This document shows positions 1,572 through 5,208 of a stretch of 64,000 nucleotides of DNA, piece after piece. Within the stretch, counting starts at the first letter, position 1; the number at the start of each line of letters is the position of its first letter. The notes under the pieces were generated by a model that worked only from the letters and a program-made list of their open reading frames with translations, had not been told where the DNA came from and did not search any database. The DNA comes from Escherichia coli. Its GTDB lineage: Bacteria > Pseudomonadota > Gammaproteobacteria > Enterobacterales > Enterobacteriaceae. Where the stretch lies: NCBI RefSeq assembly GCF_003991155.1, contig NZ_CP031293.1; one strand, given 5' to 3'. The position numbers were made by a program, and so were the translations under genes.

Positions 1572-1779
<208 letters not shown>

Positions 1780-1820
1780 TCGTTGGCCTCGGTTTGTACT
1801 GACCCCAGAAAGTTGGACAG

Positions 1821-2672
1821 TTAAACACGAGGCATATAGGTCTGATTCCGATATTCAATTGGAGTCAGACCTTTTAATTTCAGGCTAATTCTTCTGCTGT
1901 TGTAGTATTCAATATATTCCGTAACAGCATCCTTCAGCTCGCTTATATTACTGAACTCATCAAGATAAAAACACTCCGACTTTAAGGTTCCAAAGAAACA
2001 CTCCACCACAGCATTATCCAGACAATTGCCTTTTCTGGACATGCTTTGTTTAATACCATGTTCTTTAAGGATATTTTGATATCTTCTCATACGATACTGC
2101 CATCCCTGGTCAGAGTGCAGAACAGGATGCTCGTGAGGATTAAGCTTTTTGAATGCCTGATCGAGCATATTCTCGACCATGTTCATCACTGGTCTTTCCG
2201 AAAGGCTGTAAGAAATAACTTCGTTGTTGAAGAGATCTATTACTGGAGACAAATACAGCTTGCGCCCATTGACTGCAAATTCAGTAACATCGGTAACCCA
2301 CTTCTCGTTTGGCCGCGTAGCCTTGAAATCTCTTTGGAGAACATTGGGGGCGGTTTGCCCTACCTCTCCTCTGTAAGAGCGGTATCGCTTGACCTTAATC
2401 GCTGCCTTCAGTGAGAGGATTCCCATCAGGCGCTGAACAGCTTTATGGTTAATCTGTTTCCCTTCTCGATGAAGAGACAGCGTTACCCTACGGTATCCGT
2501 ATCGGCCTCTATTCTCATGATAAATCTCACCAATACGCTTTTTAACGTCCGCATACTTGTCAGGCTTGCTGAGAGCCTTTAGATGGTAATAAAACGTACT
2601 GCGCGGTATCTCCGCAGCCCTGAGAAGCTCATCAAGAGGATAAAACTGCCTTAGCTCGTTGAGTACTTTCAC
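1821..2672 (-). CDS. insK: IS150 OrfB (InsK), DDE integrase-type transposase catalytic domain
   Basis: 283-aa ORF in the -1 frame relative to insJ, overlapping its 3' end; IS3-family catalytic domain. Confidence 0.9.
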
Positions 2673-3190
2673 TTTTTCGTGGGATGAGCTAAGGCTTTCA
2701 GCTTTTTTAGATACACAAGCCGCGTTTCAAGAAATCGAACTTGCCTTTCAAGATCCTCAATGCGTCGGTCTTTTGACAGCTCCAATGCTGATGCCGCTTT
2801 TTCTGGATCAACTGATATTGCAATGTTTCTTTTGGTGCCAATCTTGAGCGCGCGTAAACCAGCTTCTCCGCGCTCTTCATAAACCTTCAGCCACCTGGCT
2901 ACAGAACCACTACCAGCAAGCATAAAGTGAGCAGCAGCCTGATTAAGAGACATGTGCTGCTCGATCACAGCTTTCACGACCTTAATACGCAACTCAGGAT
3001 CAGCACTAACACCTTTAGGTTTGGGAATTAAACCTTTTTCTCCATGTTTTTCATAGAGGGCAACCCATGTCCTGACCTGGGTTCGGGGGACACCAAAACG
3101 TGCCGAGATGATCCTGTAACCATCATCAGTAGTGAAGTAGTGATTCACGACTTCAAGGCGCTTTTCAAAAGGGTATTTTGGCTTTGACAT
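2669..3190 (-). CDS. insJ: IS150 OrfA (InsJ), HTH DNA-binding transposase component
   Basis: 173-aa ORF MSKPKYPFEKRLEVVNHYFTTDDGYRIISARFGVPRTQVRTW..., recognised as IS150 InsJ. Confidence 0.9.
   Translation of the reverse strand: MSKPKYPFEKRLEVVNHYFTTDDGYRIISARFGVPRTQVRTWVALYEKHGEKGLIPKPKGVSADPELRIKVVKAVIEQHMSLNQAAAHFMLAGSGSVARWLKVYEERGEAGLRALKIGTKRNIAISVDPEKAASALELSKDRRIEDLERQVRFLETRLVYLKKLKALAHPTKK
2702..2708 (-). promoter_or_regulatory. Programmed -1 ribosomal frameshift heptamer A_AAA_AAG for InsJK fusion transposase
   Basis: Plus-strand cttttttag at 2702-2710 is AAAAAAG on the coding strand, inside the insJ/insK overlap. Confidence 0.7.
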
Positions 3191-3567
3191 ATCAGGGGCT
3201 ATTCCATTTCATCGTCCAACAAAATGGGTGCAGTACACAGTTGATAGAAATATTGGTCGGGGCCTTCGTCTTTCTGATTCCCGGTTAGCCTGAAAACAGA
3301 AAGTCTCAGGCACCCGTGAGCATCCTATGTGGTTTCCTTAAGGACGAAAATAATCACCTGACGAAATTGCGTGCTGTTTTCCAGAATTTTTCGTCATTCG
3401 GTTTAGCCAGTTTAATCATTCGTTACTCTCTTCATTCCAATGGCATTATTCTTCTCTGCCATAATTGTTGTAAAAATGTGACGCAAAGAGGTTTTTGGTC
3501 GTAAGAAATTACCGTCAAGTGCCGATGACTTTCTATCAGGAGTAAACCTGGAAGAGAGACAACGGTA

Positions 3568-5208
3568 ATGAATACAACTCCCTCACAGCGATTAGGTTTT
3601 TTGCATCACATCAGGCTGGTTCCGTTATTTGCCTGCATTCTTGGCGGTATCTTAGTTCTATTCGCATTAAGTTCTGCTCTGGCTGGCTATTTCCTCTGGC
3701 AGGCCGATCGCGATCAGCGTGATGTTACTGCGGAGATTGAGATTCGGACCGGGTTAGCGAACAGTTCAGATTTTTTGCGTTCAGCCCGGATCAATATGAT
3801 TCAGGCCGGGGCAGCGAGTCGTATTGCGGAAATGGAAGCAATGAAGCGAAATATTGCGCAAGCCGAATCGGAGATTAAACAGTCGCAGCAAGGTTATCGT
3901 GCTTATCAGAATCGACCGGTGAAAACACCTGCTGATGAAGCCCTCGACACTGAATTAAATCAACGCTTCCAGGCTTATATCACGGGTATGCAACCGATGT
4001 TGAAATATGCCAAAAATGGCATGTTTGAAGCGATTATCAATCATGAAAGTGAGCAGATCCGACCGCTGGATAATGCTTATACCGATATTTTGAACAAAGC
4101 CGTTAAGATACGTAGCACCAGAGCCAACCAACTGGCGGAACTGGCCCATCAGCGCACCCGCCTGGGTGGGATGTTCATGATTGGCGCGTTTGTGCTTGCC
4201 CTGGTGATGACGCTGATAACATTTATGGTGCTACGTCGGATCGTCATTCGTCCACTGCAAAATGCCGCACAACGGATTGAAAAAATCGCCAGTGGCGATC
4301 TGACGATGAATGATGAACCGGCGGGTCGTAATGAAATCGGTCGCTTAAGTCGTCATTTACAGCAAATGCAGCATTCACTGGGGATGACTGTAGGGACCGT
4401 TCGACAGGGCGCGGAAGAGATTTATCGTGGCACCAGCGAAATTTCAGCTGGCAATGCGGACCTGTCATCTCGCACCGAAGAACAAGCGGCGGCTATCGAA
4501 CAAACTGCCGCCAGCATGGAGCAACTCACTGCGACGGTGAAACAGAATGCGGATAACGCGCATCATGCCAGCAAACTGGCGCAAGAGGCTTCTATTAAAG
4601 CCAGCGATGGCGGGCAGATGGTTTCCGGTGTAGTAAAAACGATGGGCGCTATCTCCACGAGTTCGAAGAAAATTTCTGAGATCACCGCCGTCATCAACAG
4701 TATTGCTTTCCAGACGAATATTCTGGCACTGAATGCTGCCGTTGAAGCCGCGCGAGCGGGTGAGCAAGGGCGTGGATTTGCCGTTGTCGCCAGCGAAGTA
4801 CGGACACTCGCAAGCCGCAGCGCTCAGGCGGCGAAAGAGATTGAAGGCTTGATCAGTGAATCAGTCAGGTTAATTGACCTGGGATCGGATGAGGTGGCCA
4901 CGGCCGGGAAAACCATGAGCACTATTGTTGATGCCGTCGCGAGTGTCACACATATCATGCAGGAAATTGCCGCCGCCTCGGATGAACAAAGTAGAGGCAT
5001 AACGCAGGTTAGCCAGGCGATTTCTGAAATGGATAAGGTGACGCAACAGAATGCTTCTCTGGTAGAAGAGGCCTCAGCGGCGGCGGTGTCCCTTGAAGAA
5101 CAGGCGGCACGATTAACTGAGGCGGTGGACGTATTCCGTCTGAACAAACATTCTGTGTCGGCAGAACCTCGCGGAGCGGGTGAACCAGTTAGTTTCGCTA
5201 CGGTGTGA
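3568..5208 (+). CDS. trg: Methyl-accepting chemotaxis protein III (ribose/galactose sensor)
   Basis: 546-aa ORF; N-terminal TM, periplasmic domain, HAMP, and the conserved MCP signalling domain (...[15 protein letters not shown]...). Confidence 0.9.

Follow-up and report, generated by a model that had tools for sequence, protein, structure and literature searches.

Does the copy of IS150 in this stretch of Escherichia coli chromosome retain everything that it needs to make its frameshifted transposase and to move, and what accounts for the place in which it lies? IS150, together with its frameshift at A_AAA_AAG and the OrfAB transposase that results, has been textbook matter since 1991. The element, the frameshift, and the fused transposase are thus already known, and RefSeq annotates this same DNA as a programmed-frameshift IS150 transposase; our question concerns the state, the history, and the target of this particular copy. 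The window that we analyzed is the whole 64-kb stretch, in which IS150 occurs only once, so that a composite transposon or a second nearby IS150 is ruled out within it. Elsewhere, the window resembles an ordinary E. coli chromosome. Rfam matches place the RydC sRNA at 1093–1156 on the minus strand, adjoining cybB, and a SECIS element at 59188–59246 on the plus strand, at the start of a large plus-strand ORF (59242..61653) that is presumably a formate dehydrogenase gene.

To define the extent of the element, we aligned it to the annotated IS150 of K-12 MG1655 and located its ends, as follows.

1795..3237, minus strand: complete IS150, 1443 bp, by gapless alignment to the annotated K-12 MG1655 IS150
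3207..3237, minus strand: terminal inverted repeat IRL, reading 5'-TGTACTGCACCC... and ending at 3237; from a repeat search, with 31-nt arms that are 71% complementary
1795..1825, minus strand: terminal inverted repeat IRR, reading ...GGGGTCAGTACA-3' and ending at 1795; the other member of the inverted-repeat pair with IRL

The alignment contains 17 substitutions and no indels (1426/1443 nt, 98.8% identity), and none of the 17 substitutions falls within IS nt 523–651, the stretch that includes the frameshift region. By the ISfinder convention, isoforms share more than 95% nucleotide and more than 98% amino acid identity; the window copy, with 98.8% of nucleotides and 99.3% of transposase residues (453/456) in common with K-12, falls within these bounds. 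The terminal inverted repeats are imperfect, with TG...CA ends that read TGTACTG...CAGTACA. The first 44 nt of the element are the same as in K-12, while IRR differs by one substitution (IS nt 1430, T>C) that is common to all moved copies of the window allele described below. DNA that is 100% identical, flanks included, occurs in many complete E. coli genomes, where it is labeled [quoted passage not shown] By sequence comparison, therefore, we assign window positions 1795–3237 to a complete IS150, an IS3-family isoform of the K-12 reference. The latter (insJ/insK, b3557/b3558, the hokA copy in MG1655) has the same 1443-bp length, ORF layout, heptamer coordinate, hairpin, and DDE residues.

The production of the fused transposase depends on a small region in which the two reading frames of the element overlap. 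The features of this region are given here.

2669..3190, minus strand: insJ (orfA), 173 aa, a helix-turn-helix (HTH) DNA-binding protein, from the ORF list and a Pfam HTH_28 match (E = 1.6e-23)
1821..2726, minus strand: insK (orfB) frame, −1 relative to insJ, from the ORF list and Pfam matches to rve (6.7e-29), rve_2, and HTH_21
2702..2708, minus strand: slippery heptamer A_AAA_AAG at IS nt 530–536, in the position and phase of the K-12 reference
2648..2695, minus strand: predicted frameshift-stimulating hairpin with a 10-bp stem, GCCUUAGCUC/GAGCUAAGGC, from RNA folding

An earlier note on this DNA, made from the letters and a list of ORFs, had described an IS150 with both frames intact and the slippery heptamer in their overlap, and each of these points is borne out within the full-length 1443-bp element. 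Both insJ and insK are uninterrupted. The insJ gene (IS nt 48–569) differs from K-12 in a single residue, M159V, and the annotated GTG-start ORF of insK runs from 2672 to 1821 (283 aa). The insK frame is open over IS nt 512–1417 and the insJ stop lies at IS nt 569, which creates a 58-nt overlap; because the heptamer occupies IS nt 530–536, it lies inside this overlap. The plus strand at 2702–2708 reads CTTTTTT, giving AAAAAAG on the minus strand, and the insJ codons across it are CUA-AAA-AAG, which is the X_XXY_YYZ phase of A_AAA_AAG.

The predicted hairpin begins 6 nt (CUGAAA) past the heptamer, with a folding energy of −18.5 kcal/mol (z = −4.09) that none of 200 shuffled sequences equaled in stability, and the same hairpin is also found in a 101-nt fold. 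An Enterobacter relative of the element (L024), which is 91% identical overall, carries 3 differences in the frameshift region of ∼110 nt (∼97% conserved) and an invariant stem; it is the sole full-length divergent relative that was compared, and an invariant stem leaves no covariation signal to score. Rfam holds no family for the IS150 frameshift element, and a search of it gave nothing at 2620–2720 even at E ≤ 1.

These surroundings are what give the heptamer its meaning. The bare sequence AAAAAAG occurs 19 times in the 64 kb, compared with an expectation of 16.4±4.1 and with at least 19 in 31 of 100 shuffles, which is about the level that chance alone would produce; what makes the copy at 2702–2708 significant is solely its setting, in phase with insJ, within the ORF overlap, and followed by a hairpin. 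A count of this kind would be compatible with a chance AAAAAAG that has no recoding role, yet the context effectively rules out such a reading, to which we give a negligible probability: this heptamer agrees exactly with the characterized IS150 site in phase, in position, and in the hairpin that follows, and it is embedded in the ∼110 nt that are conserved well above the overall identity in the Enterobacter relative.

Other elements and genes with this type of signal provide a comparison. In IS911, IS3, and E. coli dnaX, which use the same A_AAA_AAG heptamer, a 3' RNA structure is spaced 5–9 nt from it; IS911 and dnaX possess an extra upstream Shine-Dalgarno-like stimulator, and IS3 uses a pseudoknot. 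The window copy of IS150 differs from all three in that only a simple long-loop hairpin is predicted. A second question is whether InsJK could arise mainly because RNA polymerase slips on the A6 run during transcription, and not through −1 frameshifting by the ribosome. Six A residues in a row are few for efficient slippage of RNA polymerase, and the correctly spaced, very stable, and conserved hairpin is a signature of ribosomal frameshifting. Although transcriptional slippage is used by some IS3-family elements, such as IS1447 (PMC6211511), we regard it as very improbable as the main source of InsJK, and a survey (PMC4066793) cites IS150 as an element in which −1 frameshifting by the ribosome at A_AAA_AAG, stimulated by a stem-loop, is proven.

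Ribosomal frameshifting at the heptamer would yield the following product, with its candidate active site.

1821..3190, minus strand: predicted InsJK (OrfAB), 456 aa, complement join(3190..2702, 2702..1821), with base 2702 read twice
2291..2289, 2111..2109, and 2003..2001, minus strand: catalytic codons D301, D361, and E397, respectively, plus K404, assigned by motif spacing

With a simultaneous −1 slip, the predicted protein is joined at ...RLVYLKK/AESLSS... (the slash marks the fusion point), and precisely this fused sequence is recorded under the names “IS3-like element IS150 family transposase” and “OrfAB transposase.” It contains the Pfam domains HTH_28, HTH_21, rve, and rve_2 and scores 412 bits against the NCBIfam model transpos_IS3, which has a cut-off of 160. 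A sequence search of InsJK against PDB chains gave no match at E ≤ 0.001, so that we placed the DDE triad from the spacing of the motif together with the Pfam rve match, and not on a solved structure. D301 lies in WVTDVT, D361 in LHSDQG, and E397 in NAVVECFF, followed by K404, with a spacing of 59/35/6. This spacing fits the rule for the IS150 subgroup, D(57–60)D(35)E with a K six residues after the E (PMC5771124). No mutation of the DDE triad was found on the alignment to the reference, D301, D361, and E397 all being present. InsJK differs from its K-12 counterpart in three residues, M159V, S221G, and T258I, all of which are outside the rve domain.

The way in which these parts would work together can be outlined as follows. 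The IS150 mRNA encodes InsJ (orfA), and a fraction of the ribosomes translating it would slip back one base at A_AAA_AAG, helped by the 10-bp hairpin 6 nt downstream. For IS150, Vögele et al. (1991) reportedly put this fraction at about one third. Slipped ribosomes would go on in the insK frame to produce the 456-aa InsJK, with an N-terminal HTH region and a C-terminal DDE/RNase-H-like catalytic domain, and InsJK would then act on the terminal inverted repeats in the copy-out/paste-in manner of the IS3 family, with target duplications of 3–4 bp. Since all of the cis and trans components are intact, the window copy is very probably competent for transposition through frameshifted InsJK. The earlier note had proposed both OrfAB synthesis and probable competence, and the two open frames, the in-phase heptamer, the hairpin, the HTH and rve domains, the D-59-D-35-E-6-K arrangement, and the TG...CA inverted repeats all lend support to that proposal. 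From these features we infer frameshifting and transposition for the window copy itself.

Several considerations run against competence, the atypical flanks of the window copy (see below) among them. The three residue changes and the one IRR substitution set this allele apart from the experimentally studied element; the K-12/B allele, which is three residues from the window allele, is highly active in evolution experiments (PMC5289635, PMC5419217, PMC7881107). In addition, 574 of 5426 complete E. coli genomes share the junction between IRR and hokB, so that the copy may have been a long-standing resident that stayed where it is. Copy-out/paste-in transposition, however, keeps the donor. Our view of the host genome covers 64 kb, in which this copy is the only one.

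The behavior of the same allele elsewhere bears more directly on this point. By exact-sequence look-up of the InsK allele in other genomes, we found the byte-identical 1443-bp allele (0 differences) in four further junction contexts. One identical copy (L005) lies inside a molybdopterin oxidoreductase gene with a perfect target duplication (TSD), ggt/ggt; another (L010) lies in the ldr locus with a perfect ccgg/ccgg; and a third (L008) is at hokA, in the orientation opposite to that of K-12, with a perfect aag/aag. Identical copies at hokA in the K-12 orientation (L004, L009) are without a TSD, and a 5-bp TSD (aagtg/aagtg) also occurs for the window allele at hokA. Because clean new duplications flank identical copies at other loci, these comparisons of DNA show that the window allele has transposed recently.

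The K-12-type hokA copy of IS150 (L002), for its part, is without a TSD, and the sequence next to its IRR recurs, as the reverse complement, next to IRL in oppositely oriented hokA copies (compared in L004, L006, and L008). This suggests that the K-12-type hokA configuration arose by an in-place inversion with an adjacent deletion, not by simple insertion. Two metagenome contigs (L068, L059) have chimeric IS150 flanks, such as a left flank from the hokB side with a right flank from the hokA side; read from the junctions, this pattern implies that copies of IS150 at different hok loci have recombined, with large rearrangements as the outcome.

That IS150 copies recombine, as the chimeric flanks indicate, is one of the points that could be raised in favor of a quiet element here. 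On such a reading the window copy looks intact and is inherited vertically, an amino acid change, the IRR substitution, or the IRL junction with its extra TG blocks its mobilization, and the identical copies in other genomes arose by recombination or gene conversion; the presence of the same junction in so many genomes and the imperfect TSD of the window copy (see below) would agree with this. Recombination, however, does not make what is found around the identical copies at non-homologous sites, where perfect 3–4-bp duplications (ggt/ggt, ccgg/ccgg) are the product of transposition. The amino acid changes are, moreover, outside the catalytic domain, and the extra TG is outside the IS ends. 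We consider a quiet resident unlikely, and favor a competent element.

To place the element within its locus, we compared the window to the empty K-12 site and its annotation. The features on either side of IS150 are listed below.

1572..1779, minus strand: mokB (1779..1612) and hokB (1721..1572) reading frames, from the ORFs and the K-12 annotation of the homologous region
1769..1794, plus strand: 5' part of sokB, its first ∼26 nt, mapped from the K-12 sokB annotation (L003 1620–1676)
1786..1791, minus strand: CGAGGC in the mokB Shine-Dalgarno region, starting 4 nt from the IRR end
1792..1794: TSD copy GTT on the IRR side, from comparison with the empty K-12 site
3238..3242: CA followed by GTT on the IRL side, from the same comparison
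3502..3528, plus strand: sigma-28-type promoter-like motif of trg, TAAGAAAT-N11-GCCGATGA, read by eye; the trg coding sequence is 3568–5208

The insertion follows position 1645 of the empty K-12 site (L003; ...GGCCTCGGTTGATAG...), within sokB, 16 nt ahead of the mokB start codon. Both sokB and the hokB mRNA leader are thus interrupted by IS150, at a point 4 nt upstream of the ribosome-binding site of mokB, with the 3' part of sokB at about 3243–3273, beyond the element. The mokB and hokB ORFs are intact along with the ribosome-binding site, but the insertion separates them from their promoter and 5' leader; strain 2016C-3878, in which the locus is identical, has hokB annotated there. The Rfam family for the hok leader and sok (RF01794) reflects the same disruption: the empty K-12 site gives a single match of 109.7 bits, whereas the window gives two weaker matches flanking IS150, of 62.5 and 39.5 bits (1716–1794 and 3238–3315). 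The description of IS150 as lying beside a toxin locus, given in the earlier note, consequently has to be revised, since the element is inserted in the sokB/hokB leader, inside the locus. The same note had placed it beside a chemoreceptor promoter. A sigma-28-like motif for trg is indeed found on that side, similar to the FliA consensus, TAAAGTTT-N11-GCCGATAA, but it is untouched at a distance of 265 nt from the IS end, which rules out an insertion within the trg promoter; the distance from the IS end to the trg start codon is 330 nt.

Some smaller differences accompany the insertion. The −35-like half of the trg motif (3502–3509) is TAAGAAAT in the window and TAAGTAAT in MG1655, and the spacer between hokB and trg contains several other substitutions relative to K-12. 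Just inside the IRR end, at 1838–1872 on the plus strand, there is a terminator-like hairpin of 15 pairs followed by TTTAATTT, which faces transcripts from the hokB/sokB side and could terminate the truncated sokB transcript or block read-in. Both the K-12 copy, at hokA, and the window copy, at hokB, are in the leader/sok region of a chromosomal hok locus; in the window copy the hok gene is faced by IRR and not by IRL, unlike the K-12 hokA copy.

The flanks of the window copy read GTT / IS / CA-GTT, which can be described either as a duplication of 3 bp plus two additional bases adjoining IRL or as a 5-bp duplication with one mismatch (CGGTT/CAGTT). Because these flanks are not a clean 3-bp duplication, the history of the window copy, as its junctions record it, is not that of a simple textbook insertion. 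At the same hokB site, the K-12 allele has clean TSDs of 3 bp (L018) and of 4 bp, shifted by one base (L021), and the identical allele copies elsewhere have clean TSDs of 3, 4, or 5 bp. The hokB site has therefore received at least three independent natural IS150 insertions: that of the window allele and the two of the K-12 allele. [quoted passage not shown] Those studies concern the E. coli B allele and put the parallelism largely down to selection, whereas the window contains a natural insertion of a different IS150 allele with an atypical left junction.

As a side observation, we compared the sequences that adjoin the IRR end. The sample was drawn from the exact-allele look-ups, from species-representative genomes (6 IS150 ends), and from metagenome contigs (75 loci, which make up most of the sample), and it provided 54 distinct IRR flanks. 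The motif YGRGGC, starting 4–6 nt from the IS end and straight after the 3–4-bp duplication, is present in 36 of them, compared with a background of 0.19% in the window (binomial P ∼ 1e-84), and GGC alone, at +7..+9, +8..+10, or +9..+11, is present in 46. When hok-leader-like flanks are removed, the motif is still found in 19 of 37, a figure obtained with a crude pattern filter that let two hokB-site flanks remain. The motif is also oriented: of 30 unique full-length insertions, 21 have it in the IRR flank and none has it in the IRL flank. In the window, the CGAGGC at 1786–1791 fits YGRGGC. At hok loci, the Shine-Dalgarno sequence of mok constitutes the motif, and the RF01794 consensus has a conserved GaGGC; the motif is also present in the ldr leader.

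On balance, we lean towards a model in which IS150 integration is directed, in a fixed orientation, to a 3–4-bp target followed by YGRGGC on the IRR side, such that type I toxin-antitoxin loci serve as landing pads and the insertions at trg/mokB, hokC, hokE, and ldr, as well as the hokB insertion in the window, reflect target preference at least as much as selection. We found no description of a YGRGGC target motif in the open-access literature that we searched, including PMC5289635, PMC5419217, PMC7881107, and PMC11708052; one may exist elsewhere. The oriented target motif might thus be the sole part of our findings that is new.

For the strain itself, a competent IS150 would mean a live insertion sequence, from which insertions, deletions, and recombination between IS copies are possible, and the insertion that it already carries disrupts its hokB/sokB type I toxin-antitoxin locus. 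The oriented motif, if true, would explain mechanistically why hok and ldr loci are hot spots for IS150, a pattern that papers on experimental evolution have read as adaptive parallelism.
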